From: Actinomycetota bacterium
Lineage (GTDB): Bacteria; Actinomycetota; UBA4738; JACQTL01
Assembly: GCA_036394995.1 (NCBI GenBank)
Contig: DASWED010000111.1
Coordinates: forward strand, 72,330 to 136,329
Length of the DNA stretch: 64,000 nucleotides
Direction of reading: 5' to 3'
Part shown: one piece after another, positions 20,103-45,425 of the stretch
Position numbering within the stretch: position 1 is the stretch's first letter
Layout: each line of letters begins with the position of its first letter
Program-made: the position numbers and the translations under genes
Notes under the pieces: generated by a model
Told to the model about the DNA's origin: nothing
The model's input: only the letters and a program-made list of their open reading frames with translations
Database searches by the model: none

Positions 20103-20326
20103 ACAGCCGCTCGGGGCAGCACGATAGCCGGTGGTCCCGACCGCGGCATCGCACCTGCGCGGAGCCTCGACGCGGGATCACCCGCCCGTGGCCGAAGGCA
20201 TCCCCCGGGACGGGGAACCGATCCCCTGGCAGGGGCCGATCGGACCGCCTTTCGCGCCGAATGGCCGATGTTCGGCCGGAGCGTGGTGGGTAGGCTTCTG
20301 CCACCGCGAATGCGAGGGGGGGCGCC

Positions 20327-25370: not shown

Positions 25371-25383
25371 GCTCCGCCCCGCT

Positions 25384-27837: not shown

Positions 27838-29298
27838 ATGCCCGCATTCCTTTCCGTTCGCCGGCTCGTGTTGCTCGTGACCGGCGTCGTCGTGCTGATC
27901 TCCGCCCTGGTGGTAGCCGGCGGCGCGGGAGGCTCGAACGCCCGCGCCGCCACCGCCGTCGGGTTCGTGCGGCACGCGTACCACCCCGGCACGGCCACCA
28001 CGCGGAGCAAGGAGATCTCCGGGTACTCCGGACCTCGCTTGTCGCTGCAGGTCGCGAAGGTCGGGGCTCCCGGGATGGAGCCCACCATCGGCGTGGCCGC
28101 CGACGGCACCGCGTACTACGGAGCCGCCCACATCGTGGCCGACACCCCCTACGCGTGGGGCGGGGCCCGCACCGACACCCGCATGTCCACCGACGGCGGG
28201 AAGACGTGGAAGTCCATCCAGCTGGGCGGCGGGGACGTCGGGGTTCCGCCCGCGAACGCCGACCCCATGATCTACGTCGATCAGACCACCGGCCGGGTGT
28301 TCAACTTCGACCTCGAGGGGGCCTGCAACTTCCTCAACTACTCGGACGACAAGGGCCAGTCCTGGTCCACGAACCCGGCGGCCTGCGGGAACCTGGTCGT
28401 GGACCATCAGACCATCGTCACGGCCAAGCCGAGGGAGGGCCTCACCACCAGCGGGTACCCGAACGTCGTGTACTGGTGCTCGAACCGGGTGGCGGACGCC
28501 ACGTGTGGCCGGAGCCTGGACGGCGGGACGACCTGGGGACCCACGGGTGACGCCGCCTACATGGGCTATGACGAGGCCGCCGGTGGACTGTGCGGTGGTC
28601 TCGCCGGACACCTCGCTGCGGACCCCGACGGGCGGATCTTCCTGCCGAAGGGCCACTGCGAGCACCCGTGGGTGTCCATCTCGCAGGACGGCGGGGCCAC
28701 CTGGAAGCGGGTCCAGGTCAGCACGATCAGCGCCTCGGACACGCACCTGTCGCTCGCGTCGGACAACGCCGGGAACCTCTACTACGGGTGGTGGGGCGGG
28801 AAGCACGACCTGCCCTATCTGTCGATCTCGCGCGACCACGGCATGACGTGGAGCGCGCCGATGATGATCGCGCCGCCCGGCGTGTTCGCGGCCAACCTGG
28901 TGACGGTCTCGGCCGCGGCGCCAGGCCGCGTGGCCGTCACGTTCCTCTCCACGACCGATCCGAAGGAGGACGGCCACCGGCCCATGGACCAGACCGTGGT
29001 GGTGTCCACGAACGCCCTGTCGGCCAACCCGACGTTCGTCTCGTCCACGGCGAACCCGGCCGGCGACCCGATCCACCGGGGCAACGACTGCACCGCGGGC
29101 CGGTGCGGCGGGATCTGGGACTTCATCGACATCCACATCTCGAAGGCCGGCCAGGCGTGGGCCAGCATGTCCGACGACTGCGTGGCCACCTGTGTGACGA
29201 GGGACGAGCGCACCGCGCTGCACGCGGGCGTGGGCTACGCGATCCGGGAGATCGCGGGCCCCAACCTGGGCGTGCCGTTCCAGTTCGCCTCTCCGTAG
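27838..29298 (+). CDS. secreted or membrane-anchored Asp-box (BNR) beta-propeller protein
   Basis: N-terminal hydrophobic segment LVLLVTGVVVLISALVVAGGAGG. Asp-boxes STDGGKTW, SDDKGQSW, SLDGGTTW, SQDGGATW and SRDHGMTW. Confidence 0.75.
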   Translation: MPAFLSVRRLVLLVTGVVVLISALVVAGGAGGSNARAATAVGFVRHAYHPGTATTRSKEISGYSGPRLSLQVAKVGAPGMEPTIGVAADGTAYYGAAHIVADTPYAWGGARTDTRMSTDGGKTWKSIQLGGGDVGVPPANADPMIYVDQTTGRVFNFDLEGACNFLNYSDDKGQSWSTNPAACGNLVVDHQTIVTAKPREGLTTSGYPNVVYWCSNRVADATCGRSLDGGTTWGPTGDAAYMGYDEAAGGLCGGLAGHLAADPDGRIFLPKGHCEHPWVSISQDGGATWKRVQVSTISASDTHLSLASDNAGNLYYGWWGGKHDLPYLSISRDHGMTWSAPMMIAPPGVFAANLVTVSAAAPGRVAVTFLSTTDPKEDGHRPMDQTVVVSTNALSANPTFVSSTANPAGDPIHRGNDCTAGRCGGIWDFIDIHISKAGQAWASMSDDCVATCVTRDERTALHAGVGYAIREIAGPNLGVPFQFASP

Positions 29299-30573: not shown

Positions 30574-30813
30574 CTACGGCGGCGCCCGACTACCTCCTTC
30601 GATCACCGTCCCGTCCGGCCGGGAGAACACCGGGGAGCCGTCGACCATCTCCACCCGGAACCCGTGGTGGTGGATCTTGCGGTGGTGGCGCCGGCACAGC
30701 AGCACCAGGTTGGACAGGTCCGTCGGTCCCCCGTCGGGCCAGTGTGCAAACCGGGCATGTCGGGATTCGCGAAGAAGATTCCTCAACTCTCCCGCCGTCT
30801 GCACGAATCGCAT
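30574..30813 (-). pseudogene. C-terminal relic of a DUF222-type HNH endonuclease
   Basis: HARFAHWPDGGPTDLSNLVLLCRRHHRKIHHHGFRVEMVDGSPVFSRPDGTVI is the C-terminal HNH signature of actinobacterial 13E12/DUF222 HNH endonucleases, which are normally 400-500 aa. Only ~79 codons remain, and the upstream part of the ORF is antisense to another gene. Confidence 0.6.
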
Positions 30814-30921
30814 GGGTCGGTCGGACCGTGAACTCCCACGGTCAGCGCGAGGTGGGACGGCGTTTTCCGATCGCGAACGTTCGGGAACGTTTGAAGGGAC
30901 ACGTCGACGTGCCCCGAGGAG

Positions 30922-31269
30922 GTGAGGCTCGTGCCGAGGAGCGAGTGGACCGACGAGCAGGAACGCAAGTACGAGCACATCAAGGAGAGCACCAGATCGC
31001 GCGGGGCGTCCACCAAGCGGGCCAAGGAGATCGCGGCCCGGACGGTGAACAAGGAGCGGGCCCAGCGAGGCCAGAGCGAGACGGCCTCCAGGTCCTCCGT
31101 GCGCGATATGCCGTCGTCCAAGCGAGGCGGCCAGCGGTCCGGCACCAGCGGGCCGCGGGGGCGGACCCGTGAGCAGCTCTACAACGAAGCCCGGCAGATG
31201 GGCATCGAGGGCCGTTCGAAGATGAACAAGGCCCAACTCCAACGCGCGGTCGACCGCAAGAAGCGGTAG
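30922..31269 (+). CDS. small basic protein with C-terminal Rho_N/SAP-like helix-extended-helix motif
   Basis: 115 aa. SEWTDEQERKYEHIKESTRSRGASTKRAKEIAARTVNKERA, then a Ser/Arg/Gly linker and TREQLYNEARQMGIEGRSKMNKAQLQRAV. The exact start (GTG at 30922 or a downstream GTG) is uncertain. Confidence 0.6.
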   Translation: MRLVPRSEWTDEQERKYEHIKESTRSRGASTKRAKEIAARTVNKERAQRGQSETASRSSVRDMPSSKRGGQRSGTSGPRGRTREQLYNEARQMGIEGRSKMNKAQLQRAVDRKKR

Positions 31270-31408: not shown

Positions 31409-31437
31409 TTGACAGGTTCCCCGCCCGGTGAGAGAGT
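31409..31437 (+). promoter_or_regulatory. candidate sigma-70-type promoter upstream of the giant gene pair
   Basis: Perfect TTGACA (31409..31414), a 17-nt spacer, then GAGAGT (31432..31437). Notable in ~70% GC DNA, but not validated. Confidence 0.25.
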
Positions 31438-31584
31438 CCGCGCCGTCCACCCATCCATGGGGGAGCGCCCACGACCGTAGACGATCGACCCGAGGGCCTC
31501 GACGGCGCGCCGCAGTCGCCCGATTCGGACCCCCCGGAGGCGCCCCCGGTCGATCCGCGGCAGGACGAACCGACCCATGGCGGC

Positions 31585-31671
31585 CGGTTCCTCATCACCC
31601 GCCGGGACTTCCTGAAGTACTCCGGCGCCGCCACGGTCGTGGTGGGCGCCGGACCGGCTCGAGCCCTGGCA
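31585..31671 (+). other. twin-arginine (Tat) signal peptide coding segment, in frame with giant ORF 1
   Basis: Translates to RFLITRRDFLKYSGAATVVVGAGPARALA with AxA followed by GSE. This matches the consensus S/T-R-R-x-F-L-K, an h-region and an AxA cleavage site. It lies upstream of the first canonical in-frame start (GTG at 31639). Confidence 0.7.
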
Positions 31672-34600
31672 GGCTCCGAGGCCCGGTTCGGCCGGGCCTC
31701 CAACCCCTTCCCCACCTTCAACCTGGTCCGGGCCCGGGACATGCTGGCCCTGTCGTTCGAGGTCCACAACCTCGAGCTGAAGAGGAAGGGCCAGGCCGGC
31801 CCGGGGGACACCCAGACGGCCCGTCTCGTCCGCACCGTTCCCGACCGCCCCGCGTACATCGTGGTGGTGTTCGAGCCCCAGCACCTGGCAGAGCACGCGT
31901 TCTTCGAGGTGAACGACCCGATGATCCCGGGCGATCCCGGCCCCGAGACCCTGATGTCGCCCCCCGTGCCCTCCAGCCTGGCCGGCCCCAGCCGGCTGGC
32001 GTTCAGGGTCCCTGCGAACGTGGCCGCGGTTCCGTTCGAACTCGACACGCTGCTGACGTGGGGCGACTGGGAGCGCAGCCTGGCCCCCCTGGCCCAGGAC
32101 CCCCCTCGCAGTGGGGCCGGCTTCCGGGACCCCACGGTCTTCACCACGGACACCGCGCTCGAGGTGCCGTGGCGGCTGTACCTCTCGCCCGGCCCCAGCT
32201 CGCTGTGGTTCCACTCGCACGACCCGGTCACCCACACCGACCCCAAGGACTCCCGTCCGCGGACCGAGCTGTGGCACTCGAGGATGGGCGTCCACATCGG
32301 CTCCGCGTCCACCGAAGGCGGCCGCATCGCCAACCCCCACAACGAGGAGGGCGGGCCGCTCCGCGCCATCTGGACGCCGGGGTTCTCCACGGACCAGGAC
32401 CCCCCCGACCCGAACGGGCTCGGCCCGAACCCGCCCGAGCGGACGTCGCTGAAGCCGAACGACCGGTGGCAGATCGTCCGGCTCACCGCCGAACGCGACC
32501 TCCAGCTGTTCAACCAGGACACCGCCTACGTCCCGCAGCCGGTGGACTCCGACCGGTTCGCGCTCTCGGCCCTCGGGGTGTTCATGGACACCAAGGGGGC
32601 CTGGCCGAAGGTCACCACCCAGGGTGGGGTCGACCACCCGTGGGTCTCGGACCTCGTCAAGTGGGATCACCGGGCCGCGATTGGCCGAGACAACTACGTC
32701 CGGGTCATCCACTCCGGGTACCTGCTCCCGTTCGGGCACGCCGCCGTGGTGGTCACGGTCACCGAACGGAAGATGCAGCCGGCGGAGTCGGGGCCGCTGG
32801 CCGGCCAGCTGGGCGGCTACCTCCGCCAGCACGCGTTCATCATCCCCCGCAGGTTCACGCTGGGCTACCCGGCGGCGTCGAACCAGCCGAACGGCGCCCG
32901 GGACTTCCCGTTCACGAACATCAAGCTGAAGACGCTGGTCACGCCGAACCTCGAGCCCTACGACGGCGCGACCCCCGTCACCCAGACGCAGGTGCTGAAG
33001 ACGAACAGCCAGCCGTACGGCTCCACGGCCTTCTGGCCCATGATCCCCAGCTCCGGCGGCACACCCGTCGACTTCGAGTTCGTGTACGAGGCCACGGACC
33101 GGGATGGGAACTCCATCCAGTTCACCGCGCCCCAGATCTTCGTCTCGTCGACGCTCGCCGACGACAAGACGAAACAGGACGACATCGAACAGATCATCCA
33201 CGAGTACGGCAAGGCCACGCCGAGCAGCCGACACACCCGCTCCTTCAACGGCCAGAAGGTGGCGTTCGCCACGTTCCCCGGCGGTGAGGAGGGGGCCACC
33301 GCCTACGAGGTCGACACCATGACCTTCAGCGCGGCGCCCCCCGTGAACACGAACGCGGAGCCCACCGACATCCCGAGGTTCTTCCCGAACCTGCTGAAGG
33401 CCGACGTCCGGCTCCAGGCCGCCGAGCGGATCGCCGGGAAGTCCCTGGCCAAGAAGCCGACCATCGTCTACCACGACACCTACGTCGCGAACGGCCAGAA
33501 CAACTCGAAGGTCTTCGCCATGCTGGTGGACTCCTCCACCGTGAAGCCCCCCCAGCCGGGCAAGGCGAAGACCGCGCCGACGCCCGAACCGCTCGACATG
33601 GTGCTGGGGGCCGACACCTCCGGCGGTGTGCTCACGCCGAACATGGCCATCACCGGCCTGTCGGCGGCGCTGGGGCCGATGGGCGGCGACCTGTCGAGCG
33701 GCCTCCCGTCCGACTTCGATCCGCTGGAGTTCTTCGGGAACCCGGCGTCGCTGCCCAAGATCCTGGGCGGCCTGGACCTCTGGGACATCATCCACGCGGT
33801 CACCGGGTTCTCCGACCTGGACAAGATCCCCAAGACCATCGAGAGCCCCCTCCCGGACCAGATCGTGGTCTCGCTCGAATGGAATCCCGAGCCGGTGCAC
33901 GATCCCCTGAACGTGTTCGTCCCGGGAGGGAACTGCTCGATTTCCATCTCCGCGGTGTCCACGACGGAGATCAACGACAACGGCACCCCGGGAGAGTCCA
34001 CGTTCGAGATCACGGGCATCATCGAGGACTTCCAGGCCCAGCTGGTGGGCGACGCCTTCAAGGCCATCGTGATCACGTTCGACCACCTGAGTTTCTCCTC
34101 GGTCAGCGGCCAGAAGCCGAACGTGGACCCGGCCATCACCGACGTCACGTTCGTGGGGGTCCTGGAGTTCGTGCAGAAGCTCCAGGAATTCCTGTCCTCG
34201 ATCGGGTTCGGGAACGGCGGGCTGTCACCGGGGCCGGCCACGCGGAACGGCGCGCTCGTGTCACGCAAGGCCCAGGCGGCCGACGCGCCCGAGGACGACG
34301 GCTCGGGCCCGTCGATCACCGTCGACGAGACCGGGATCAACGCCTCGCTGGGAGTGAGCCTCCCGGCCATCCAGGTCGGCGTGTTCAGCCTCGAGGGGAT
34401 CTCGTTCGGGGCCAAGCTGAACATCCCGTTCGTGGACGGGCCGGCCCGGGTCCGGTTCAACTTCGCCTCGCAGGACGCGCCGTTCCTGATCACGGTCTCG
34501 CTGTTCGGCGGGGGCGGTTCCGTGGAGGTGGGGCTGGGGCTCGACGGGTTCGAGTCGCTCACGCTGACCCTGGAGTTCGGGGCCAAGATCGCGATCGACC

Positions 34601-35046
34601 TCGGTGTGGCCTCCGGCGGCATCAGCGTGATGGGCGGCATCTACATCAACATCGAGGACAACAACGGGAACCAGGACACCACCCTGACGGGCTTCGTGAA
34701 GATGACCGGGGAGCTCGACGTCCTGGGGCTGATCACCGCGTCGGTGGAGTTCGACCTCTCGCTCACGTACGAGGACTCCGGCGGCGTGAAGCGGTGCTAC
34801 GGGCAGGCCGAGATCACGGTCGAGGTCAGCGTGGCGTTCTTCTCGGCCAGCGTGACCCTGGGGCCGGTCGAGGAGGAGTTCGCCGGCGGGGGAGGGAGCG
34901 CCCCCGCCCCGCTCCCCGGGGCGAGCTCGAACGGATCCCGGGCCCGGGCAGCCTCCGTCGACGACAACCACATCACGTTCGCGCAGCTGATGAGCCAGGA
35001 CGACTGGGCCGTCTACGCGGCGTCCTACGCCCCCGGAGCATTCTGA
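31639..35046 (+). CDS. giant hypothetical protein 1 (at least 1135 aa; probably Tat-exported, true N-terminus upstream near 31577)
   Basis: Uninterrupted 3.4-kb ORF with protein-like composition throughout. I recognised no catalytic or family motif. The C-terminal ~190 aa is Gly-rich with alternating-polarity beta-strand patterns. The conservative start is given; see the findings for the Tat-motif extension. Confidence 0.85.
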   Translation: MVGAGPARALAGSEARFGRASNPFPTFNLVRARDMLALSFEVHNLELKRKGQAGPGDTQTARLVRTVPDRPAYIVVVFEPQHLAEHAFFEVNDPMIPGDPGPETLMSPPVPSSLAGPSRLAFRVPANVAAVPFELDTLLTWGDWERSLAPLAQDPPRSGAGFRDPTVFTTDTALEVPWRLYLSPGPSSLWFHSHDPVTHTDPKDSRPRTELWHSRMGVHIGSASTEGGRIANPHNEEGGPLRAIWTPGFSTDQDPPDPNGLGPNPPERTSLKPNDRWQIVRLTAERDLQLFNQDTAYVPQPVDSDRFALSALGVFMDTKGAWPKVTTQGGVDHPWVSDLVKWDHRAAIGRDNYVRVIHSGYLLPFGHAAVVVTVTERKMQPAESGPLAGQLGGYLRQHAFIIPRRFTLGYPAASNQPNGARDFPFTNIKLKTLVTPNLEPYDGATPVTQTQVLKTNSQPYGSTAFWPMIPSSGGTPVDFEFVYEATDRDGNSIQFTAPQIFVSSTLADDKTKQDDIEQIIHEYGKATPSSRHTRSFNGQKVAFATFPGGEEGATAYEVDTMTFSAAPPVNTNAEPTDIPRFFPNLLKADVRLQAAERIAGKSLAKKPTIVYHDTYVANGQNNSKVFAMLVDSSTVKPPQPGKAKTAPTPEPLDMVLGADTSGGVLTPNMAITGLSAALGPMGGDLSSGLPSDFDPLEFFGNPASLPKILGGLDLWDIIHAVTGFSDLDKIPKTIESPLPDQIVVSLEWNPEPVHDPLNVFVPGGNCSISISAVSTTEINDNGTPGESTFEITGIIEDFQAQLVGDAFKAIVITFDHLSFSSVSGQKPNVDPAITDVTFVGVLEFVQKLQEFLSSIGFGNGGLSPGPATRNGALVSRKAQAADAPEDDGSGPSITVDETGINASLGVSLPAIQVGVFSLEGISFGAKLNIPFVDGPARVRFNFASQDAPFLITVSLFGGGGSVEVGLGLDGFESLTLTLEFGAKIAIDLGVASGGISVMGGIYINIEDNNGNQDTTLTGFVKMTGELDVLGLITASVEFDLSLTYEDSGGVKRCYGQAEITVEVSVAFFSASVTLGPVEEEFAGGGGSAPAPLPGASSNGSRARAASVDDNHITFAQLMSQDDWAVYAASYAPGAF

Positions 35047-38000
35047 TGGCGAGCTACACGCAGCAGGTGATCTGGACGGCAATCCCGAACGGGGTCACCG
35101 GGCCCTCCGGGAGCCAGGTGCTGCACGTCACGGCGTACGTCTCGCCCCGCCTGATGAGCGACCAGGCTCCCATGCAGGACCTGAGCAACTGGCCGCTGTG
35201 GACGGACTGGCCGTCGGAGGTGGCGAACAACCTGACGCTGTTCGTCCAGCTCGGGAGCGGGTCGCAGATCGAGGCCACCCGGGACCCCGCGATCCCGCTC
35301 GACTCCGACGCCTGGCAGAAGCTGTTCCCGCCGGACTCGCCGGTCCGCCCCTACGACTTCGACGACCGGTTCAAGGGCCTGGACACCCGGCGGATCCGGT
35401 CGATCCCGCTGTCGGCCATCCAGGACTTCGTGAAGACGCACTACACGGACATCGCGGTGGACCCCAAGACCGCATCGGGCTTCCCCTCGGCGAACGACCT
35501 GGTGTCGGTGTTCGGCCCCCTGTCGTTCGCGTCGAGCCGCACGGAGAACATCGCCAAGCAGCACATCGAGGACCTGCTGGACGAGGCCAAGGCGATCGGG
35601 GCGCTGGGGACCGCCCAGCTGAACTTCCTGCAGGCGAAGATGTACCACACGGTCTACGACAAGGTCCGGCTCCCCCACGACAAGCTCCAGCCCACCGTGG
35701 AGGCGGTGGACTTCCACCAGGCCCTGAGCTCGCTGAACGACCATCCGACGCTGCTCCGCCGCCTGGGCCTCGTCATCGATCTCCGGGTCCCCATCCCCCG
35801 AACGTTCTCGTCGCCGACCACGGTGAAGGTCATCCCGACCATCGCCCGGAGCGGGATGGTGTCGCCGGCCACGAACGCGCTGCTGGCCCCGCCCATGTTC
35901 CAGCCCGCGCCCCGCTCGAGCGGGCCGGATCTCAGCCGCGGGCTCCTGCGACTGGGCGACCCCGCGTACCACCTCCTGGAGATCGACACCGACGGGACCG
36001 CGCTCCGCCTGCGCCACTTCGCCGACAACCTGAACTCCGCGCACGGCCAGTACCACGCGCCGGACACGCCGGGCCGGTCCTCGGTCCCGGCCCTCCGGTC
36101 CGGGGGCCTCGCCGTGTTCCGCGACCAGTTCGCGCTCCACTTCCACCACCAGCTGCAGAACATCAAGGGGCTGCAGACCGCGCTGGGCGGCGGGACCCCC
36201 ACGTTCCATGCCGAGGACCTCCTGCAGGGCTACCGGTGGGACGTGTTCGACGCGACGTCGGGCCGGTGGTTCTCGCTCTGCCTCCGCCACGGGGAGTACA
36301 CGCTGGGAGACCCGAACGACTCGCCGGTGATGCTGTCGATCGACGACGAGGGCCTGGTGTCCACGGCGGTGAAGCAGGACCAGGACACGGCGGCCACCGA
36401 CACGACAGCCGATCTGTTCCTCCAGGAGACCCTGGGGCGGTTCACGGGAGGGAGCCTGGTGGCGCCGAGGCCGGGGAACCAGCTGTCCACCGACCCCGCG
36501 GCCCCGCCCATCCCGCCCCCCACCGACCAGCACGAGGACTTCAAGATCACGCCGGTGTTCACGCCGCGGGCCGGCTCGCTGCCGCCGCTCCGGTTCGGCC
36601 GGTCCTACCGGATGCGGGCCCGGGCGGCGTACCTCGGGGGAACGGGCCTCGGCCTCAACGGGCCGAACCCGAACGATTTCACCCACGCCACCGACGAGAC
36701 CGTGTACGGCCGGTTCGAACCGGTGCCGCCGCCGGGCATCCTGATGCGGGCTCCGAAGACCGAGGGCGAGCTGGTGGACCGCCCGGTGATCCGGAGCAAC
36801 TTCGACACCCCGCCGCCCCCTACGAAGGCGGTCGAACGGTGGATCGTTCCGCCGAAGACCTCGCAGCTCATGGCGGAGCAGCACGGGATGTTTGACACGC
36901 CGAGCGGGGTCGACGGCACGAGCAGCCTGTACGAGCTGATCGCGGCCCGGGAGAGCGGCTCGTTCCTGCCGGAGACCCTCCCCGACCCCGACAGCGGAGC
37001 CCAGCCGGACCCGAACGCGTACAACCAGCCCTACTACCCCGACGCCACGCTGCACTTCACGGTGGAGAACGGAAACCAGGCCGCCGTCCCGTACCTCCCC
37101 GACCCGCTCCCCAGGGCCGCGGCGTTCGTGGGGCTCCCCGGCGCGGCTGCCGGGTCGGTCTTCCAGGTGACGTTCGGCCAGCAGACGTGGCCCGGCACCG
37201 AGCCCATCAGGCTCCGGCTGATCGAGGGGACGGGCGCCCCGAGCTTCTCGGGCGGCGTGCTCACGGTGCACATGCCCAAGGCCACCATCGCCCCGGTGCT
37301 GCTCTCGTCGGCGCTGCGGGTGGCCGACCTCGACAAGCTCGGGATCTGGCAGTGGATCCTGGAGCGGGCCGCGGTGGACCCCAACGTGGCGAACAAGCTC
37401 TCGGTGCTGAAGGGTCTGGCGGTGCGGGGGCGGCTGTGGATGATGACCCCGTTCCACCGGATGGTGCTGGTGCACGCGGTGCGCCAGCCCCTGAAGGCCC
37501 CCCAGTTCTCGGCGAGCGCGAAGTCCACCAAGGCCAAGGTCGGGGACACGTTCGCCACGCTCACGGACACCGTGGCGATCAGCCGGCGGAGCACGAACCA
37601 GCTGGACGTGCTGGCCCGGTGGACCGACCCCATCGACCAGTCCGCGGCGCTCCCCAAGCAGCCGGTGGCGCACGCCGAGCACGTGGGGCAGGTCATGGTC
37701 CCGTCGGGCAGCCCGGACGGCTCGTTCGACCTCTCGATCCGCCACGAGATCAAGGACACGAAGTTCCACCGCGTGAAGTACTCGCTGGTGGCGAAGACGA
37801 GGTTCGCCGAGTACTTCATCCAGCACCGGACGATCCACCTGGTGGGAACGACCCCCGTGGTGGTCGCCGCCAAGGGGATCGTCGAGGGTTCGGACATCGT
37901 GACCGCTCCGGACGGATCGAAGAAGTACGCGCGGCACACCGACACCGTCGCCGGCGACTACACGATCGACTACGACACCGGGGAGGTCGCCCGCACGGCG

Positions 38001-39020
38001 GGGAGCACGATCCCGAACGACTCCGACGTGAGCGTGCAGTACCTGGCCAAGCCGATCACGCGGAGGTCCACCGAGCCCGGGGTCCCACCGACCGCAGCCC
38101 TCATCGTGAAGAACTCGGCCCGGCCGGACCCGCCGAAGGTGCTGTACGCCGTGCCGCTGTTCGAGTGGCAGGAGCACAAGACGGCGCAGGGGGTGGCCAG
38201 CAGGCGGGTCGGCCGGAGCCTGCGGGTGTTCATGGACCGGACGTGGTGGTCGTCGGGGGCCGAGGAGAAGCTCGGGGTCGTGTTCCACGTCTCGCCGAAC
38301 GCCGTGCTCCAGGAATGGGTCACGCGGATCGGCTTCGACCCCGTGTACAGGAGCTTCGTCTCCAGGTTCAAGATGACGACCGACCTGTTCCCGCTGGCCA
38401 CGGTGTTCGGGGCGAACCTGCCGCTGGCGGAGGTGGCGGGGGCGAAGGTCCAGGTGGCCGGGCACGAGGTGGACTTCGACCACCAGAAGGGGATGTGGTT
38501 CGCGGACGTCAAGGTGGACATCCCGCCGTCCTACTGGCCGTTCATCCGCATGGCCGTGGCGCGGTACCAGCCGTTCTCGATCGCCGGTGCGGAGCTGTCG
38601 CGGATGGTCCTGGCCGACTTCGTGCGGCTGGCCCCCGACCGGACGGCCACGGTCCTGCTGACCGACGGCGGGTTCGCCATGGACGTGTCGGTGGTGGGGA
38701 TCTCGTACCAGTCGGTCCGGAGCCTCCACAACTTCATCGGGGACACGGCGCTGACGAAGGCCGGGCCGGGGCGGATGGTGGTGATCCCGGAGACCCGCGA
38801 CCCCGGGATCCCGGATCCGGACCTGGGATGGAAGCCGCTGCAGGATCCCGTGGAGCTCTCCCCGCATCAGCTCCAGGATGGGCTGACCAGGTGGGGGCCC
38901 CGGTCGATGAAGTTCGGGTTCAAGGTGGGGACGAAGCCTCTGCGGCTGGTGTTCCGGGAGCGTGAGGACTTCGGGTCCGGGCGCTCGCGCCTGGTGTACG
39001 TCGACGTCGTGACGCCGTAG
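35046..39020 (+). CDS. giant hypothetical protein 2 (1324 aa), translationally coupled to giant protein 1
   Basis: The ATG at 35046 overlaps the upstream TGA (cTGATGg). The protein begins MASYTQQVIWTAIPNGV and has no signal peptide or TM helix that I can see. No recognisable family motif. The part of ORF 33879.. upstream of 35046 is shadow sequence of gene 1. Confidence 0.85.
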   Translation: MASYTQQVIWTAIPNGVTGPSGSQVLHVTAYVSPRLMSDQAPMQDLSNWPLWTDWPSEVANNLTLFVQLGSGSQIEATRDPAIPLDSDAWQKLFPPDSPVRPYDFDDRFKGLDTRRIRSIPLSAIQDFVKTHYTDIAVDPKTASGFPSANDLVSVFGPLSFASSRTENIAKQHIEDLLDEAKAIGALGTAQLNFLQAKMYHTVYDKVRLPHDKLQPTVEAVDFHQALSSLNDHPTLLRRLGLVIDLRVPIPRTFSSPTTVKVIPTIARSGMVSPATNALLAPPMFQPAPRSSGPDLSRGLLRLGDPAYHLLEIDTDGTALRLRHFADNLNSAHGQYHAPDTPGRSSVPALRSGGLAVFRDQFALHFHHQLQNIKGLQTALGGGTPTFHAEDLLQGYRWDVFDATSGRWFSLCLRHGEYTLGDPNDSPVMLSIDDEGLVSTAVKQDQDTAATDTTADLFLQETLGRFTGGSLVAPRPGNQLSTDPAAPPIPPPTDQHEDFKITPVFTPRAGSLPPLRFGRSYRMRARAAYLGGTGLGLNGPNPNDFTHATDETVYGRFEPVPPPGILMRAPKTEGELVDRPVIRSNFDTPPPPTKAVERWIVPPKTSQLMAEQHGMFDTPSGVDGTSSLYELIAARESGSFLPETLPDPDSGAQPDPNAYNQPYYPDATLHFTVENGNQAAVPYLPDPLPRAAAFVGLPGAAAGSVFQVTFGQQTWPGTEPIRLRLIEGTGAPSFSGGVLTVHMPKATIAPVLLSSALRVADLDKLGIWQWILERAAVDPNVANKLSVLKGLAVRGRLWMMTPFHRMVLVHAVRQPLKAPQFSASAKSTKAKVGDTFATLTDTVAISRRSTNQLDVLARWTDPIDQSAALPKQPVAHAEHVGQVMVPSGSPDGSFDLSIRHEIKDTKFHRVKYSLVAKTRFAEYFIQHRTIHLVGTTPVVVAAKGIVEGSDIVTAPDGSKKYARHTDTVAGDYTIDYDTGEVARTAGSTIPNDSDVSVQYLAKPITRRSTEPGVPPTAALIVKNSARPDPPKVLYAVPLFEWQEHKTAQGVASRRVGRSLRVFMDRTWWSSGAEEKLGVVFHVSPNAVLQEWVTRIGFDPVYRSFVSRFKMTTDLFPLATVFGANLPLAEVAGAKVQVAGHEVDFDHQKGMWFADVKVDIPPSYWPFIRMAVARYQPFSIAGAELSRMVLADFVRLAPDRTATVLLTDGGFAMDVSVVGISYQSVRSLHNFIGDTALTKAGPGRMVVIPETRDPGIPDPDLGWKPLQDPVELSPHQLQDGLTRWGPRSMKFGFKVGTKPLRLVFREREDFGSGRSRLVYVDVVTP

Positions 39021-39029
39021 CGCCCGCGG

Positions 39030-39665
39030 TCAGCGGTGGTCGCGGTGGCGGTCGGCCACCCGGATCACCAGCTTCAGTGCCGAGTGGGTCGCCGAGAAGC
39101 TCACCACCTTCACGTCGACCAGGCCGGCGGCGAGGGCGGCGTCGCGGACGTCGTTCTCGTTCACGTCCGGCGAACCCTTCCTCCACACCACCCAGACGGC
39201 GCCGTTCGCGACGATGAAGCTCCGCAGGGTCCGGATCCGCCGGAGGTCGGTGCGGTCCCCGACGCCGAGGACGATGAGGTCGCACCCCACCCGCCGGGAC
39301 TGGATGTGCGCGTTCGGCGTTCGGGCGGTCAGCTGGCTCAGGAACTCGGGGTCGTCGACGTTCAGCACGGAGACCCTGGAGCCGGGCTTCACGCCGAGCT
39401 TGTCGACGAGCGAGGGGGGGTTGCGGATCTTCTCCGCCCATCGCTTGGCCTCCGGTCCCAGCTCGAACACGGCCGTGGCGCCGGCGTGCTCGAGGGTCAG
39501 CCGTGCGCCGCTCGCGTGGACGGCCGTGACCTTGGCGAACGGGATCCGCAGCCGGACCTCGGACGCCCGGAACAGCAGCTCCGTGGACTCGAGCTCGGCG
39601 ACCCCCTCGTGGCGAGCGCCGTCGATCCTGGCGCTGCACTCGACCTTGCGCCCCACGCTCCCCAT
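39030..39665 (-). CDS. DUF3052-like protein
   Basis: 211 aa from the internal ATG at 39665. The C-terminal half LGVKPGSRVSVLNVDDPEFL...NGAVWVVWRKGSPDVNENDVRDAALAAGLVDVKVVSFSATHSALKLVIR recalls the DUF3052 family. The N-terminal ~80 aa is beta-rich. Confidence 0.6.
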   Translation of the reverse strand: MGSVGRKVECSARIDGARHEGVAELESTELLFRASEVRLRIPFAKVTAVHASGARLTLEHAGATAVFELGPEAKRWAEKIRNPPSLVDKLGVKPGSRVSVLNVDDPEFLSQLTARTPNAHIQSRRVGCDLIVLGVGDRTDLRRIRTLRSFIVANGAVWVVWRKGSPDVNENDVRDAALAAGLVDVKVVSFSATHSALKLVIRVADRHRDHR

Positions 39666-39752
39666 GCTCGCCCTGGTGAGGGCGTCTGACAACCCCCAGG
39701 TTTTCGGTGGCGGTGTACGCGGGGGGATGGCCTCGGGCGTATACACGGCGGT

Positions 39753-40310
39753 GTGGACGATGCGCCGACCACGCGCGAGGACGATCGGACGAACACAGGG
39801 GCCGGAGCCGGCGACTTCGAGGACTTCTTCCGGTCCCGGTTCGCCGAGGTGGCCCGGGCCATGATGCTGGCCGCCCACGACCGCGACCTCGGCGAGCAGA
39901 TCGCCGCCGAGTCCTTCACGAGGCTGTTCGAACGGTGGGCCTCGTTCGAGACCGAGGACCATGCGCTGCGGTTCGCCTACCGCACGGCGCTGAACCTGGC
40001 GACGTCCCACCACCGCAGCGAACGCCGGTGGAGCCTACTGCGGTCATCCCGCGGCCAAGAGCTGGGGCAGGATCCGGCGCCCGGCCCGGAGGAGGCCACG
40101 GCGAACCGGGCGGCGGTCTTCCAGGCCCTCCGGACGCTCAGCCCGATGCAACGCGCGTGCGCGGTGCTGGTGGACTACGCGGACTTCGACCCCGACGAGG
40201 CGGCCGTGATCCTCGGCATCGCCGCGTCCACCGTCAGGGTCCATCTGACCAGGGCGCGGCGGTCCCTCCGCGCCGCCCTGGGCGCCCCGGACGAGGAGCT
40301 TGAACCATGA
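39753..40310 (+). CDS. ECF (group 4) sigma-70 factor
   Basis: Region 2 (GEQIAAESFTRLFERWASF, RFAYRTALNLATSHHRSERRW) and region 4 (LSPMQRACAVLVDYADFDPDEAAVILGIAASTVRVHLTRARRSL). The exact start is uncertain. Confidence 0.8.
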   Translation: MDDAPTTREDDRTNTGAGAGDFEDFFRSRFAEVARAMMLAAHDRDLGEQIAAESFTRLFERWASFETEDHALRFAYRTALNLATSHHRSERRWSLLRSSRGQELGQDPAPGPEEATANRAAVFQALRTLSPMQRACAVLVDYADFDPDEAAVILGIAASTVRVHLTRARRSLRAALGAPDEELEP

Positions 40311-42481
40311 CCGCCGACCCCTTCGTCCGCGAACGACTCTCCGAGGCAGTGGATCACGAACCCGTGGACGTCGATTCGCACCTGCGGATGGCCATGACCC
40401 ATGGGCCGACCGTTCGATCTCCCCGCCGCTGGCCGATCGCGGCAGCCGCCCTGCTCGCCACCGGCGCGGCGGTCGCGTTCGTCGCGTGGACCTTCTTCGC
40501 GCACGATGCCGGCCCCGGGCACCGTCGCACCCCGGCGCCGGTCACGTCGGCACCCGGGTCGCCGATGCCATCGCCGGCGCCATCGCCGGCGCCCGGCACC
40601 TCGAAGATCTCCCTGCCCGATGGCGCGTCCGGGTACCGCCCGCTGGCGTATGGATTCGGGTCGCTATGGGTGGCGTCGTCGTCCGGCCATTCGGTGACCA
40701 GGGTGGACGCCGGCACGAACGACGCGACGACCATCCCCGTCGAGAGCGCGAACTCCCTGGCGGTTGGAGAGGGATCGGTGTGGGTGCTCGGGGATTCGAG
40801 CGTCTTCCGGATCGACCCCGGGACGGATCGCGTGGTCGCGACGATCGATGTCGGCCGGGGTGCACGGTCCATCGCCGTGGGAAGCGGCGCCGTGTGGGTC
40901 CTCGATTCGAAGCCTGGAGGATCCGTGATGCACCGGATCGACCCGAGCACCGGCCACGAGGTCGCGAGCGCGCGCGTGAGCGACTATTCCGTCGAGGTCG
41001 CGGCCGGCGACGAGGGTGTGTGGCTGCTCGTGGACGTCGACGCGGTGGTCAGATTCGACCCGGAGGCGAACCGGGTGGTGGGGGACCTCGTCCCCATCGG
41101 GGATCGGGACGACCTCGCGGTGGGCATGGGCGCCGTGTGGGTGGCGAGCCAGTCGTCCGGGGAGCTGACCAAGCTCGACCCCTCGAGCGGCCGGATCCTG
41201 GGCACGATCCCACTGTGTGGGGAGAACGTGGCCTCGGGCGGGGGCTGCGACGTCTGGCTCGGCGATGGGCGGGTGTGGGTGATGGCCACGCCCTGCTGCG
41301 ACAGGTTCCCGCGGCTCTGGAGCGTCGATCCGATGAGCGACGAGGTGACCAGGGTTCCCGTGCCGAGGGTCCCGATCACGCTGTGGGCCGTGGGAGGCGA
41401 GTCCCTGTGGTTCACGACCTCGGGGTCCTACCTGTTCCGAACGCTGGTCGCGCCCTCGACGCAGACGCCCGGTCCCCCTGCCTCGCCCTCGTCCCCGGCG
41501 CAGGCCGGCGTCCCCTCGCTCGCCGCGGTCGACTTCGTCGACGAGCAGCATGGATGGGTCGGGGGCGACGGTGTGGTCCTCGGGACGTCGGATGGCGGCG
41601 CGACCTGGAGTCGGGAGTACGAGGGTTCGGCGAACATCGACTCCATCCAGTTCGTCGATGCCTCGCACGGGTGGGCCCTCGGTGACCACCAGCTGCTCGT
41701 CACGTCCGACGGCGGGGCGCGCTGGACGGCCGCATCCGAGCCCGGCGATGGCCTCGCGCAGGTGCAGTTCGTCTCCGCGGCCGTGGGGTGGGGCATCTCG
41801 GGCGGCCTGGGGGCCCAGGGGAGTCCGGTCGTCCACACGCTGGACGGCGGCCGGACCTGGGAGGCCGTGAGCAGCGCTCCCCTCGCCGACTGGGTCTGCT
41901 TCGGGACGGCCTCCGACGGGTGGGTGGCCGCGGGGAAGGACGCGTACCGGACGAGCGACGGCGGTGCGACATGGACCCGCGCGTTCACCGCCCCCGTCCG
42001 GGGATCGGGATGGACCTCATCGATCGGTTGCGCCGGGCCTGCGGAGGCGTGGCTTCTCACCCGCGGCGGGGCTGCGATGAGCCAGGAGGCGTACGCGCTG
42101 TTCCGAACCGCGGACGCCGGGCAGTCATGGGCCCCGGTGGCGGCGGAGGCGTATTTCCCGGCCTATCCGAGCATCCATCTGCCGGTGTCGAACACGATCG
42201 ACTGCTACGCGGGGCCGTTCGAGATCGTGGGGCCCGGTCGCGGGGCGTTCGTGGGGGTGTGTGACCCGATGGACGTCCCGACCTCGGTATCGAGCTCCTT
42301 CGACGGAGGTCGGACCTGGACCCACGTCCGGATCCCCGGCATCGCCGACTATCCCTGGGCCGCGATCGGGTTCGCCGATGCGACGCACGGATGGCTCGCC
42401 GGATCGAACGACGGCCGCGGGGTGCTCTTCGCCACCGACGACGGCGGCCGGACCTGGCGAAGGGTCGACATCCGGCTCTGA
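40307..42481 (+). CDS. single-pass membrane protein with YVTN-like and Asp-box (Ycf48/BNR-like) beta-propellers; putative ECF partner
   Basis: ATGA overlap with the sigma stop. Short N-terminus, TM WPIAAAALLATGAAVAFVAW and a Pro/Ser linker. YVTN-like repeats follow (SVTRVDAGTNDATTIPV, VFRIDPGTDRVVATIDVG), then Asp-boxes TSDGGATW, TSDGGARW, TLDGGRTW, TSDGGATW, TADAGQSW, SFDGGRTW and TDDGGRTW. Confidence 0.8.
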   Translation: MTADPFVRERLSEAVDHEPVDVDSHLRMAMTHGPTVRSPRRWPIAAAALLATGAAVAFVAWTFFAHDAGPGHRRTPAPVTSAPGSPMPSPAPSPAPGTSKISLPDGASGYRPLAYGFGSLWVASSSGHSVTRVDAGTNDATTIPVESANSLAVGEGSVWVLGDSSVFRIDPGTDRVVATIDVGRGARSIAVGSGAVWVLDSKPGGSVMHRIDPSTGHEVASARVSDYSVEVAAGDEGVWLLVDVDAVVRFDPEANRVVGDLVPIGDRDDLAVGMGAVWVASQSSGELTKLDPSSGRILGTIPLCGENVASGGGCDVWLGDGRVWVMATPCCDRFPRLWSVDPMSDEVTRVPVPRVPITLWAVGGESLWFTTSGSYLFRTLVAPSTQTPGPPASPSSPAQAGVPSLAAVDFVDEQHGWVGGDGVVLGTSDGGATWSREYEGSANIDSIQFVDASHGWALGDHQLLVTSDGGARWTAASEPGDGLAQVQFVSAAVGWGISGGLGAQGSPVVHTLDGGRTWEAVSSAPLADWVCFGTASDGWVAAGKDAYRTSDGGATWTRAFTAPVRGSGWTSSIGCAGPAEAWLLTRGGAAMSQEAYALFRTADAGQSWAPVAAEAYFPAYPSIHLPVSNTIDCYAGPFEIVGPGRGAFVGVCDPMDVPTSVSSSFDGGRTWTHVRIPGIADYPWAAIGFADATHGWLAGSNDGRGVLFATDDGGRTWRRVDIRL

Positions 42482-42529
42482 TCGGGCCGCTCCCGGGTCG
42501 TGTCGGCCGGCCGGGGTAGGCTTCGGCCG

Positions 42530-43489
42530 ATGCTGAAGCTGCGCGCCGATCCGTGGATGCCGGACTTCGGCATGGGGTTCCAGGCGGCGGTGGAGGACGA
42601 GTCGTCGGCCCAGGCCAGCCCGTTCGTCGAGCGTGAGGACTGGTCGGAGGCGCTGTCGGCCGAACCCCCCGAGGTGCCCGGCGCCGTGTGGTTCGTCGAC
42701 GGGGTCCGCCGGGTCGAGGTCCGGGTGATCGCCGATGCCGACGGCCGCCGGGTGGCGGGGCTGTTCGGGTCGCACGCGGTCGGCTCGGTGTGCTCCGATG
42801 GGAAGGCCACGTTCGGGGAGCACCGGGTGGGGCGGGTGCTGGTCACGGGCGGGGGCGTGCAGCCCGACCCGGTCACGATCGACGTGGGCACGGCGACCCT
42901 CGCGTTCCAACCGGTGTGCGAACCGGGCGACAAGCCCGAGGCCCCCCTGTTCCGGTTGCAGCAGGAGATGCGACGGGCGGAGGCCGGCATGGCCGCGAGC
43001 CTGGCAGCGGAGTCGGGGCGGATGGTGCTCGTCGACGGGCCGCTCGGTCTGGTGGACCCCACCGAGTGCCCGGTGGTGGGCGTGGTGAAGCGGTATCAGC
43101 ACCAGTACCTGGGGCCGGAGGAGGAGTCCCTGATCGCGCGCCTGGAGCCCGGGCAGCGAACGCCGCTGTTCGGCCTGGGCCTGCCCGACGGGCCCGTCGT
43201 GCGGTACTCGTGGTACACGCGGCTGGTGCCGTGGCGGGCGCCCTGGCACGACCACGCCGGGGTGGTGCGGTGCGAGGTGCCGGCCGGGCTGGGGCTGGCG
43301 CAGGCCGTCGAGGTGGCGAGCCGGGTTTCGGCGCTGCTCCCGCGGTATGCCGGGCGGCCGAGCGATCCACGGGCCCCGCAGAACCTGGCGCCGGTGGGGG
43401 GCCTGGAGGCGTGGCTCCGGCACCGGCTGGGGCACGCGGGGATCATCCGGCGGGCCCTGATGGAGCGTCTCTCCGAGGAGGCGGCGTGA
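42530..43489 (+). CDS. nurA: NurA-like nuclease partner of HerA
   Basis: About 320 aa. Acidic DG motifs VWFVDGVRRVE and MVLVDGPLG are spaced as in NurA. Its stop overlaps the GTG start of the HerA-like ATPase (GTGA). Called mainly from this coupling plus the motifs. Start set at the ATG at 42530, preceded by GGGGTAGG. Confidence 0.55.
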   Translation: MLKLRADPWMPDFGMGFQAAVEDESSAQASPFVEREDWSEALSAEPPEVPGAVWFVDGVRRVEVRVIADADGRRVAGLFGSHAVGSVCSDGKATFGEHRVGRVLVTGGGVQPDPVTIDVGTATLAFQPVCEPGDKPEAPLFRLQQEMRRAEAGMAASLAAESGRMVLVDGPLGLVDPTECPVVGVVKRYQHQYLGPEEESLIARLEPGQRTPLFGLGLPDGPVVRYSWYTRLVPWRAPWHDHAGVVRCEVPAGLGLAQAVEVASRVSALLPRYAGRPSDPRAPQNLAPVGGLEAWLRHRLGHAGIIRRALMERLSEEAA

Positions 43490-45183
43490 GCGTCGAGGAG
43501 GTCAGCGAGCGGGTCGGGATGGTCCTCGGGACCGAGGACGCCACGCCACTCGAGTTCTGGGTGGGGATCGAGCCGGGCTCGTACCTCCAGCTGGACGACG
43601 CGGTGATCGTGGACACCGAGGTCCCCGGCCGCGGCCCGCTGCGGATCGCCGGGATCGTCCAGGACGTGCGCGCCCGTCACGAGGGGGCGCAGTTCGACAC
43701 CGACGTGTTCCTGGTGGACAAGGGCGTGCTGCCGGTGGACACCGCGGTGGCGGCGCAGGTGGTGGCCACGCGGTTCGAACCGGAGATCTTCGTTCCGCCG
43801 ATGCCGGGGCTCGCCGCGTTCCGGGCCCGGGGGAAGGACCGCGACGAGGCGCTCTACTTCGACCAGATGGCTCGCCGGCTGCCCGCGGGGCTCTCCCGGG
43901 ACGGCGAGCCGATCTTCCTCGACCTCGACTTCCTCGACGGCTCCCGCGGCGCACACGTGAACATCAGCGGGATCAGCGGCGTGGCCACGAAGACCACCTA
44001 CGCGTTGTTCCTGCTGTACGCGCTGTTCCATTCCGACGTGCTCGGGCCCGCGCGGGTGAACACGAAGGCGATCGTGTTCAACGTGAAGGGCGAGGACCTG
44101 CTGTGGCTGGACCGGGCCAACGCGCGGCTCACCGAACAGGACCGCGAGGACTACGCGCGGCTGGGGCTCCCGGCGGGTGCGTTCGAGTCGGTCGGGCTGT
44201 GGGCGCCGCCCCGAGGCGGCGCCGGGGGCTCGGCTGTGCCCCAGGTGGAGGGCCGGGCCGACGGCGTGCGGGCCTACTACTGGACCGTGCGGGAGTTCGT
44301 CCGGGAGAAGTTCCTGCGGTTCATGTTCGCGGAGGCCGAGGACGAGCGGTCCCAGATCGCCGACCTGGTCGCGAGGGTGGAGTCGTACCTCGACCGCGAG
44401 TGCGAGGACGACCCCGAGCACGACGCCACCGTCGTCCACGCCGGCCACGCCATCCGCTCGTTCGACGAGTTGTGCGAGGTCATCGAGGCGAACGTCGAGG
44501 ACGATGCGTCGGCGTGGCGGGGACGGCTCTCCGACGCCACCGTGGCCGCGTTCATCCGGCGGCTCCAGGCCGCGCGGTTCCGGCTGAACCAGAACCACCT
44601 GATCTGGGGGCGCGAGGCCGAGCATCCCGAGCGCCACCGCATCGACTGGGAGTCCACCCAGGTCACGGTGGTGGACATCCACAACCTCCACGACCGGGCC
44701 AAGCGGTTCGTGACCGGCGTGGTGATCAAGCGGCTGTTCGAACACAAGGAGCGGATGGGCCACCGCGAGCCGCTGCACTTCCTGGTGCTCGACGAGCTGA
44801 ACCGCTACGCGCCCCGCGAGGGATGGTCCCCGATCAAGGAGGTCCTGCTGGACGTGGCCGAGCGGGGGAGGTCGCTGGGGATGATCCTCATCGGCGCCGA
44901 GCAGACGGCCAGCGAGGTCGAACGCCGGGTCATCGCGAACTCAGCGTTCCGGGTGGTGGGCCGCCTGGACACCGCGGAGGCCCAGCGCAGCGAGTACGGC
45001 TTCCTCCCGGCGGTGACCCGCGCCCGCGCCTCCATCCTCAAGCCCGGGAGCATGATCCTCCAGCAGCCCCACATCCCGATCCCCATCCAGGTCCGCTTCC
45101 CGTTCCCCTCGTGGGCCACCCGAGCCGACGAAGCCACGAGCGAAGCATCGGGCGATCCCTTCGCCGCGTTCCGCGACGAGTGA
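43486..45183 (+). CDS. herA: HerA-like (DUF87/FtsK-HerA superfamily) ATPase
   Basis: 565 aa. N-terminal barrel segment GMVLGTEDATPLEFWVGIEPGSYLQLDDAVIV, P-loop region HVNISGISGVATKTTYALFLL (deviant, Thr before the Lys), Walker B HFLVLDELNRYAP and RSLGMILIGAEQTASEV. Confidence 0.8.
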   Translation: MSVEEVSERVGMVLGTEDATPLEFWVGIEPGSYLQLDDAVIVDTEVPGRGPLRIAGIVQDVRARHEGAQFDTDVFLVDKGVLPVDTAVAAQVVATRFEPEIFVPPMPGLAAFRARGKDRDEALYFDQMARRLPAGLSRDGEPIFLDLDFLDGSRGAHVNISGISGVATKTTYALFLLYALFHSDVLGPARVNTKAIVFNVKGEDLLWLDRANARLTEQDREDYARLGLPAGAFESVGLWAPPRGGAGGSAVPQVEGRADGVRAYYWTVREFVREKFLRFMFAEAEDERSQIADLVARVESYLDRECEDDPEHDATVVHAGHAIRSFDELCEVIEANVEDDASAWRGRLSDATVAAFIRRLQAARFRLNQNHLIWGREAEHPERHRIDWESTQVTVVDIHNLHDRAKRFVTGVVIKRLFEHKERMGHREPLHFLVLDELNRYAPREGWSPIKEVLLDVAERGRSLGMILIGAEQTASEVERRVIANSAFRVVGRLDTAEAQRSEYGFLPAVTRARASILKPGSMILQQPHIPIPIQVRFPFPSWATRADEATSEASGDPFAAFRDE

Positions 45184-45425
45184 AGGTCAGCACAAGCGGG
45201 CTTCCGTCCGTGAAGGAAGAACGGAGCTCAGTGCTGCAGACGCCTTGTTGCGTGCTGCGCCTCGACGGCCAGGGCCATTGCCTCATCCTCGGGCATGGGA
45301 TCTCTCGCCCAGAGCCGCTCGAGCAGCTCGAGTTCCCGGCCGCCCGAGATCGGCTCTTCGGTGCTTTGGCCCTTGGAGTCGCATTCGTCCTGCATCGCCG
45401 ACATCATCTCAACGAATCGCAGGGG

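Follow-up and report, generated by a model that had tools for sequence, protein, structure and literature searches.

What do two adjacent giant open reading frames (ORFs) encode, and where does their product act, when neither protein resembles a named family? We asked this of genes A and B, which lie back to back in a 64,000-nucleotide stretch of DNA (hereafter, the window; G+C ~71%) from an Actinomycetota bacterium (contig DASWED010000111.1). We found that the two genes form a strictly paired module distributed over many phyla. With a probability of roughly 0.35, we read them as encoding a two-subunit extracytoplasmic complex that would be exported in the folded state via twin-arginine translocation (Tat), with B hitch-hiking on the signal of A, and that would act on the cell envelope or wall, the C-terminal module of A being a candidate membrane contact. 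The two genes and their junction are as follows.

31594..35046, plus strand: gene A, 1150 amino acids (aa) if begun at ATC 31594, 1135 aa if begun at GTG 31639, which is the first canonical start.
35046..39020, plus strand: gene B, ATG start, 1324 aa, 144.6 kDa, without a signal peptide.
35044..35048, plus strand: TGATG overlap of the A stop and the B start, indicating translational coupling.

Frame A has no stop between 31432 and its TGA at 35044..35046, and the junction reads TTC TGA TGG, with one base common to the A stop and the B start; two giant ORFs with overlapping stop and start had been described in a first-pass annotation of the sequence, and both their extents and the TGATG junction were borne out. 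Together they take up ~7.4 kb of coding capacity per genome. ORF length alone does not prove a gene here, because at ~70% GC even an antisense shadow ORF (35025..38867, Arg/Val/Gly/Pro-rich) reaches 1280 aa. Codon-position GC (positions 1/2/3) was 0.63/0.48/0.96 in A and 0.65/0.48/0.97 in B, against 0.97/0.48/0.65 in the shadow ORF, which sets both apart from it: A and B are real genes. The contrast that had been drawn between their protein-like composition and the Arg/Pro shadows agrees with these third-position values (GC3) and with the presence, in hundreds of genomes, of full-length homologues of both proteins at 27-63% identity, which are unnamed or 'hypothetical' and without Pfam domains. 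Protein A has a mature mass of ~120 kDa, a pI of 4.8 and a nearly all-beta fold. Cysteines number two in A and one in B, and neither protein has a transmembrane helix (top Kyte-Doolittle 19-residue window, 1.54).

Both proteins were compared with Pfam (2025 copy), NCBIfam (2026), PADLOC, PHROGs and PDB sequences. Besides the Tat signal on A, no family match was obtained in Pfam, NCBIfam, PADLOC or PHROGs; PADLOC as a whole and the toxin families of Pfam and NCBIfam were silent for A and B alike, and no nucleotide-binding or nuclease domain was present in either. RHS/YD, RTX, toxin-complex, contractile-injection and phage-tail domains, sought in Pfam, NCBIfam and PHROGs, gave nothing above threshold, the tail_tube_6XGR match of B reaching 17.5 bits, far under its cutoff of 60. 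Profiles built from each family alignment found nothing at E <= 1 among PDB sequences, and the pair was not found in 50,697 phage records. Among the public names that we saw, all were 'hypothetical protein', save 'Tat signal domain-containing' for A. The first-pass annotation had described proteins of an undescribed family with no recognisable domains, and these searches, the generic nature of the structural matches described below and the public names uphold that description. The idea that A and B are paralogues was rejected (hhalign probability 0.6%). A search with the C-terminal module of A alone, made for other architectures, returned fragments of the A family only, and the one apparently stand-alone copy of the module that was checked turned out to be a frameshifted assembly. 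Invariant or near-invariant Arg, Asp, Glu, His and Trp residues are spread over the entire length of both families, a pattern that, from the alignments, would suit a defined machine or enzyme better than it would a repetitive adhesin. By sequence and by predicted fold, the pair lies far from every tested family.

Relatives of B occurred in at least 593 genomes in a scan of one genome per species, covering Actinomycetota, Chloroflexota, Bacillota, Pseudomonadota, Acidobacteriota, Verrucomicrobiota, Planctomycetota, Armatimonadota and other phyla, and ranging from Streptomyces, Mycolicibacterium and the Bacillus cereus group to Cupriavidus, Geobacter and Bradyrhizobium. The A family comprised 6767 clusters at 50% identity when its profile was run against 1.84 billion representatives, and 3686 of these clusters reached E <= 1e-30. 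At every locus with DNA upstream of B (78/78), an A homologue lay directly upstream of it on the same strand; over 69 loci, the A stop and the B start were separated by a median of 12 nt, 10 pairs overlapped, and in 47 the gap measured 0-30 nt. The pairwise distance matrices of A and B were closely correlated (Pearson r = 0.87, Mantel p = 0.001), so the genes have evidently been inherited and transferred jointly, and mean identity across phyla was ~36% over the full length. The pair is thereby confirmed as a conserved unit elsewhere, a point that the first-pass annotation had put forward for checking.

No third conserved gene was found beside the pair, the other recurrent 'families' being antisense shadow ORFs within A and B. 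Among 148 flanking proteins from ~45 loci, the commonest Pfam family was MFS_1 (5/148), and the handful of matches to defence models included none that recurred more than three times. In Paralcaligenes, Streptomyces tsukubensis, Mycolicibacterium boenickei and Methylobacter, the genes around the pair are unrelated housekeeping genes. Sixteen (mega)plasmids carry the pair, in the Bacillus cereus group, Streptomyces, Rhizobium and Diaphorobacter and including the Cupriavidus metallidurans CH34 chromid; where these records are annotated, both genes are 'hypothetical protein'. Judged from sequence, A and B make up a self-contained module whose two genes are passed on and transferred together.

The case for export begins with the N-terminus of A.

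31594..31671, plus strand: Tat signal peptide of A, (I/M)TRRDFLKYSGAATVVVGAGPARALA, predicted cleavage after ALA (TIGR01409, PF10518).

The signal, ITRRDFLKYSGAATVVVGAGPARALA with G following the cleavage site, scored 24.5 bits against TIGR01409 (cutoff 16.7), while Pfam TAT_signal (PF10518) gave E 2.8e-4 and 21.1 bits, slightly under its cutoff of 22.7. Its twin-arginine (RR) motif, I-T-R-R-D-F-L-K at 31594..31617, fits the S/T-R-R-x-F-L-K consensus of the n-region, and a moderately hydrophobic h-region and an AxA site follow (read from the translation as YSGAATVVVGAGPARALA, then G).

We then scored 67 A homologues for an RR motif with a following hydrophobic stretch. Tat signals were called in 29 of them (~43%), including members from Actinomycetota, Dehalococcoidales, Aminicenantes, Symbiobacteriaceae, Kapaibacteria and WS1; these counts are approximate, as at least four of the negative calls are uncertain and some negatives lack an N-terminus at contig ends. 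Mapped on a neighbour-joining tree, the Tat state changed ~10 times, a figure that is likewise approximate given the truncated contigs among the negatives. Recurrence in several phyla through so many gains and losses suggests that export is functional where the signal is present. Culturable Tat-positive species include Amycolatopsis nalaikhensis, Microlunatus parietis and Lentzea fradiae, and culturable Tat-negative hosts include Cupriavidus metallidurans CH34, Bacillus tropicus EMB20 and Streptomyces tsukubensis. Additional A homologues from a protein search also carry Tat motifs, followed in two of them (P0138 and the Myxococcales protein P0189) by a lipobox, and no Sec-type signal was seen among the A-homologue N-termini inspected. 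Many A homologues are extended at the N-terminus by a further domain (~400 aa) that matches nothing in Pfam and has a conserved C.PALL....APL motif just before the core (loci L003, L004, L016, L023, L030, L036, L038, L039, L042, L054, L063, L070-L073, L079 and L090); the Tat signal, where present, precedes this domain.

B, in turn, has no signal of its own, as had been noted from the window, because its starts sit at the conserved core: in 55 of 56 homologues, B begins 6-13 residues before a conserved Trp. A Tat signal only, on one of two strictly paired proteins, is by analogy the pattern of hitch-hiker export, and the use of Tat alone fits a need to export pre-folded or pre-assembled cargo. 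In the known hitch-hikers (MelC1/MelC2 of Streptomyces, HybO/HybC of Escherichia coli and PaoABC), as in A-B, one subunit bears the signal and an adjacent partner from the same operon does not (PMC2758597, PMC4273604). The likeness is closest for melC1-melC2, in which the Tat signal belongs to the upstream gene and MelC2, the tyrosinase, lacks one, and the paralogous melD1-melD2 operon, in which MelD1 has no Tat signal and MelD2 is intracellular (PMC2758597), mirrors the split of the A family into Tat-positive and Tat-negative members. Unlike A and B, which are giant, all-beta and without a cofactor motif, the known pairs are cofactor enzymes of <=135 kDa; they have no sequence or fold kinship with A-B, whose signal in the window lacks a canonical start codon and whose co-export is putative. 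From sequence features, we consider export of A and hitch-hiking of B plausible.

A different division of labour would have A alone exported, with B staying in the cytoplasm as its folding or assembly factor or gatekeeper. Tat substrates often have dedicated cytoplasmic chaperones, and the lack of a signal on B would suit such a role; those chaperones (TorD, DmsD, NapD) are however ~10-25 kDa, not 145 kDa. B is also a multi-domain beta-sandwich protein with Laminin_G_3 insertions in relatives, which fits extracytoplasmic binding, and it is conserved to an equal degree in lineages in which A has no signal. Although the combined size of A and B, above that of known Tat cargos (PMC4273604), would favour export of A by itself, we hold this arrangement to be very unlikely.

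By its predicted structure, B resembles a generic beta-sandwich chain. Its model (residues 125-1324; predicted local distance difference test (pLDDT) 87.7, predicted template modelling score (pTM) 0.71) shows a short helical region and then a chain of beta-sandwich domains. The best Foldseek matches in the PDB were complement C3/C4, the alpha2-macroglobulins of Salmonella and E. coli, and A2ML1, at E 5.7e-7 to 1e-5 and probability up to 0.94, with a template modelling (TM) score of ~0.1 (0.09 for the match at E 5.7e-7) and 7-10% identity. These matches, together with a similar size (~1300 aa) and a build mainly of consecutive beta-sandwich domains, raise the idea that B is a divergent alpha2-macroglobulin/C3-type protease trap without a thioester, which with A as its partner would guard the envelope against proteases. 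Comparable scores were however obtained with FN3 receptor arrays, mastigonemes and C5a peptidase, and the match is therefore one to generic beta-sandwich chains; from the models, we read it as probably not reflecting family membership. Unlike the alpha2-macroglobulins, B has no thioester (CxEQ) motif, its single Cys lying in SLCLRHG, no helical thioester domain (~300 aa; only short helices appear in the modelled residues), no A2M Pfam match and neither a signal nor a lipobox. Some bacterial alpha2-macroglobulins lack the thioester, so that its absence alone does not exclude membership. The gene partners of bacterial alpha2-macroglobulins are pbpC or mag, unlike that of B. We give the protease-trap idea scarcely any credence. 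One further match of B, to an extracellular contractile injection system, had a probability of 0.15.

The model of A (AlphaFold2, from the family alignment; pLDDT 80.8, pTM 0.72) is nearly all beta, and residues 41-870 are mostly above pLDDT 90. No significant Foldseek match was found for the N-terminal 830 residues. Two elements stand out in the C-terminal part.

34312..34881, plus strand: C-terminal beta-meander of A, residues 907-1096 (AlphaFold secondary structure, Foldseek, family consensus).
34966..35043, plus strand: conserved C-terminal tail of A, consensus W..Y..AFA; A of the window ends ...WAVYAASYAPGAF.

The meander, preceded by a helix and a disordered linker, runs through ~14 antiparallel strands, of which the last seven measure 14-18 residues; the strands are strongly amphipathic and Gly-rich (FGGGG, GVASG); a C-terminal beta module had been proposed for this protein on the strength of alternating strand patterns, and the model agrees. 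The tail, modelled as a low-confidence helix after a disordered stretch and ending in ...AFA in most homologues, is a candidate docking element for B. Against the PDB, A matched only large beta-barrels (FimD, SlpA, SprA, LptD, porins) and, faintly, lipid-binding folds; against BFVD, it matched autotransporter and outer-membrane-protein barrels and tail fibres, similarly weakly. Foldseek probabilities for the barrels were 0.57-0.93, but TM scores were <=0.3. With outer-membrane barrels (porins, FimD/PapC ushers, autotransporters), the module shares a long antiparallel, amphipathic, Gly-rich meander; it differs in that the signal of A is Tat or absent, not Sec, in having no outer-membrane-protein Pfam match, in occurring also in monoderm Actinomycetota and Bacillota and in signal-less proteins, and in ending at 1096, after which a linker and helical tail (~50 residues) lead to 1150 with no C-terminal beta-signal. 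The structural comparison that had been called for in the first-pass annotation yielded generic beta-fold matches for both models.

The barrel-like meander would also serve a large binary toxin directed against bacteria, fungi, nematodes or insects, in which B and lectin-type modules would bind target glycans, the meander of A would rearrange or oligomerise to give a membrane pore, and release would be by Tat in some lineages and by lysis in those without a signal. Amphipathic, Gly-rich strands matching porins, ushers and autotransporter beta-domains suit this, as do the sporadic, accessory distribution and the copies on Bacillus cereus-group megaplasmids, including that of B. bombysepticus; giant signal-less toxins that are released by lysis exist, for example the Cry and Tc toxins. 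Aerolysin, MACPF/CDC, anthrax PA, Tc and RHS were nevertheless absent from the Foldseek top 50, no toxin family was matched in Pfam or NCBIfam, a full-length conservation that spans phyla would be unusual in fast-evolving toxins, and no conserved immunity-like small gene adjoins the pair. We regard a toxin as improbable.

Accessory domains in relatives hint at a target. One A homologue has three fused LysM domains, another (P0219) carries N-terminal DUF346 repeats (no assigned function), and a third, at locus L094 (ENA ERZ870110 contig), has an Rv2525c-like domain as a fusion partner. A separate gene, two genes upstream of A on a plasmid of Bacillus bombysepticus, is annotated DUF1906, the former name of the Rv2525c-like family. 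In B homologues, a Laminin_G_3 insertion and a weak, sub-threshold match to DUF5074 (E 7e-4) were found. That Rv2525c-like domain and one weak coiled-coil-type match were all that a Pfam scan of 12 further A homologues with insertions or extensions gave. Rv2525c and Cg0955 are putative peptidoglycan hydrolases and Tat substrates (10.1101/2025.07.02.662783). The A family resembles these wall enzymes in being Tat-linked in Actinomycetota and in the homologue with the Rv2525c-like domain; A and B of the window, by contrast, contain no such domain, and the link consists of the fusion and the one neighbouring gene in relatives. As far as domain composition goes, the accessory domains point to cell-wall glycans rather than to a specific toxin family. 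At L094, an IS110-family transposase and a phage-type integrase (3600..6030) lie directly upstream of the pair, which hints at mobility of at least that copy.

Taken in order, the proposed mechanism would run as follows. A single translationally coupled operon would yield both A (~120 kDa) and B (~145 kDa), which would assemble in the cytoplasm and then be exported folded through the Tat translocase, B riding on the Tat signal of A as MelC2 does on that of MelC1 in Streptomyces; the model of assembly before export is adopted because A alone has a twin-arginine signal in the lineage of the window. Once across the membrane, the complex would have the cell envelope as its site of action and, most likely, peptidoglycan-type cell-wall glycans as its target. 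The beta-sandwich chain of B may provide reach or binding, and the porin-like beta-meander of A is a candidate contact surface for the membrane or another hydrophobic partner. We infer the physical A-B complex, the co-export and the cell wall as target from the features described above.

Several observations weigh against this exported, wall-directed reading, and the first concerns the start of A. No in-frame ATG, GTG or TTG occurs between the stop at 31429..31431 and GTG 31639, which falls within the hydrophobic region of the Tat signal; if translation began there, A would lack the RR motif and be cytoplasmic. The length of 'at least 1135 aa' that had been given for A matches this absence, and the Tat signal that had been placed ahead of it stands with respect to consensus motif, h-region and AxA site, not with respect to an in-frame canonical start before the RR motif. 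The 430 nt upstream are the same in five independently assembled contigs except for 2 SNPs (single-nucleotide polymorphisms), so an assembly error was rejected and the gap is a real property of the organism. In the NCBI annotation of an Actinomycetota metagenome-assembled genome, the protein (HEX9377377.1, 'twin-arginine translocation signal domain-containing protein') has 1150 aa, reads MTRRDFLK... and begins at ATC 31594. The upstream region of the window was also aligned with that of a syntenic, 62%-identical locus (L092).

31459..31465, plus strand: Shine-Dalgarno-like GGGGGAG, counterpart of GGGAGGG in L092 (DNA alignment of upstream regions).

In L092, an in-frame GTG stands 7 nt after GGGAGGG and 34 codons before the RR motif; the window has kept GGGGGAG, yet without a canonical start codon after it. 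An upstream TTGACA hexamer is common to both. In the window, ATG 31457 misses the frame by one base, at a run of five G (ATGGGGGAG). Possible explanations are a non-canonical start (ATC, ACG or another near-cognate codon), slippage, or a signal that is being lost; a 1-nt slip at the G run, an ACG or ATC start and loss of the L092-type GTG were each considered, and none was established.

The remaining points against export to the wall come from the family and from size. No Tat signal was called in 38 of the 67 A homologues, and the signal-less majority of the family includes the LysM- and DUF346-fused members and the Bacillus plasmid copies; the signal-less state of several accessory-domain variants fits release by lysis or an intracellular role. 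Cases with accessory domains are few in a family of thousands. Neither in A nor in B was a catalytic motif or fold recognised, and no A-B fusion protein was found, the four candidates each having a stop after ...AFA. At ~265 kDa, A and B together are also about twice the size of PaoABC, which at 135 kDa is among the largest known Tat cargos, with no upper limit established (PMC4273604).

Some of these observations could also be explained by a complex of the cytoplasm, which might serve as a scaffold, in storage or sensing, or in defence of an unrecognised kind; Tat signals would then be lineage-specific additions and that of the window a decaying remnant, A being translated from GTG 31639. The RR motif without a canonical start before it in all five assemblies would be accounted for, as would the high share of homologues without a Tat call and a B that is always signal-less. 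GC3 upstream of GTG 31639 (31432..31638) is 0.83, intermediate between coding and intergenic, against 0.96 in the gene body. The sporadic occurrence across phyla and on megaplasmids is typical of accessory or defence modules, and genes for a TIR-WD40 protein and for NurA also lie in the window. On the other side, the Tat motif, hydrophobic region and AxA site are intact and score above a curated cutoff, and the frame ahead of them is open for 54 codons. Nor does a cytoplasmic role sit well with the recurrence of Tat in several phyla or with accessory domains of wall- or carbohydrate-binding types (LysM, Rv2525c-like, Laminin_G_3) alongside the DUF346 repeats; defence in particular is disfavoured by the silence of PADLOC on A and B, by flanks that hold no recurrent family and few defence matches, and by the lack of a nucleotide-binding or nuclease domain. 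At present, we regard a cytoplasmic complex as doubtful and retain the exported complex as the preferred reading.

The surroundings of the pair in the window include the following.

30577..31242, minus strand: partial HNH match, sub-threshold (E 4e-4).
30922..31269, plus strand: small Rho_N-like ORF, weak (E 7e-4), overlapping the minus-strand HNH ORF.
39030..40013: convergent gene of 327 aa with no assigned function, downstream of B.

The convergent downstream gene is present as the first-pass annotation had it; the HNH relic and Rho_N-like protein that it had placed upstream do correspond to matches, weak ones in overlapping ORFs. It had further called the pair a self-contained two-gene insert. 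Self-contained the module is; a recent insertion is not borne out, since the window and L092 share the order acyl-CoA dehydrogenase, small ORF, A, B, NurA, which argues against one in the lineage of the window. In L092 (10365..12385), the NurA gene is immediately 3' of B, whereas in the window the 39030..40013 gene and a BNR-repeat gene lie between. The NurA-domain gene of the window (42500..43489, plus strand) is followed by a 731-aa ORF without a Pfam match (44103..46298, plus strand), and the two may form a NurA/HerA-like pair. Proteins with BNR/Asp-box repeats (sialidase- or Ycf48-like beta-propellers) are encoded on both sides of A-B (27838..29298 and 40307..42481, both plus strand); such a gene beside the pair was not recurrent in other genomes. 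Farther upstream, the product of 22194..25727 (minus strand) measures 1177 aa and combines a TIR domain at its N-terminus (TIR_2, E 1e-27) with two regions of WD40 beta-propeller. Such an NLR/STAND-like layout is typical of candidate proteins of immunity or cell death. This gene adjoins one for a 628-aa FtsH-like protein (20294..22180, plus strand) with AAA and Peptidase_M41 domains and a PADLOC IetA match (E 2e-19).

The finding exposes a gap: the A family spans 6767 clusters and B occurs in at least 593 species genomes, yet there is no annotation, structural relative or literature for either. At the envelope, the pair may serve as a wall-active enzyme complex of a new type, as a toxin or as a surface structure. 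In its boldest form, which we consider unlikely as a whole, our reading would have Tat export A-B intact, as a ~265-kDa heterodimer of new folds; it would be a new wall- or envelope-directed machine (for example bacteriolytic or wall-remodelling, a porin-like module contacting the membrane), found in hundreds of species of more than 10 phyla, its export switched on and off repeatedly. Were that so, the size of this folded cargo would have consequences for models of the Tat pore. Because the signal has been gained and lost repeatedly, natural exported and non-exported variants can be compared, with culturable hosts for both.

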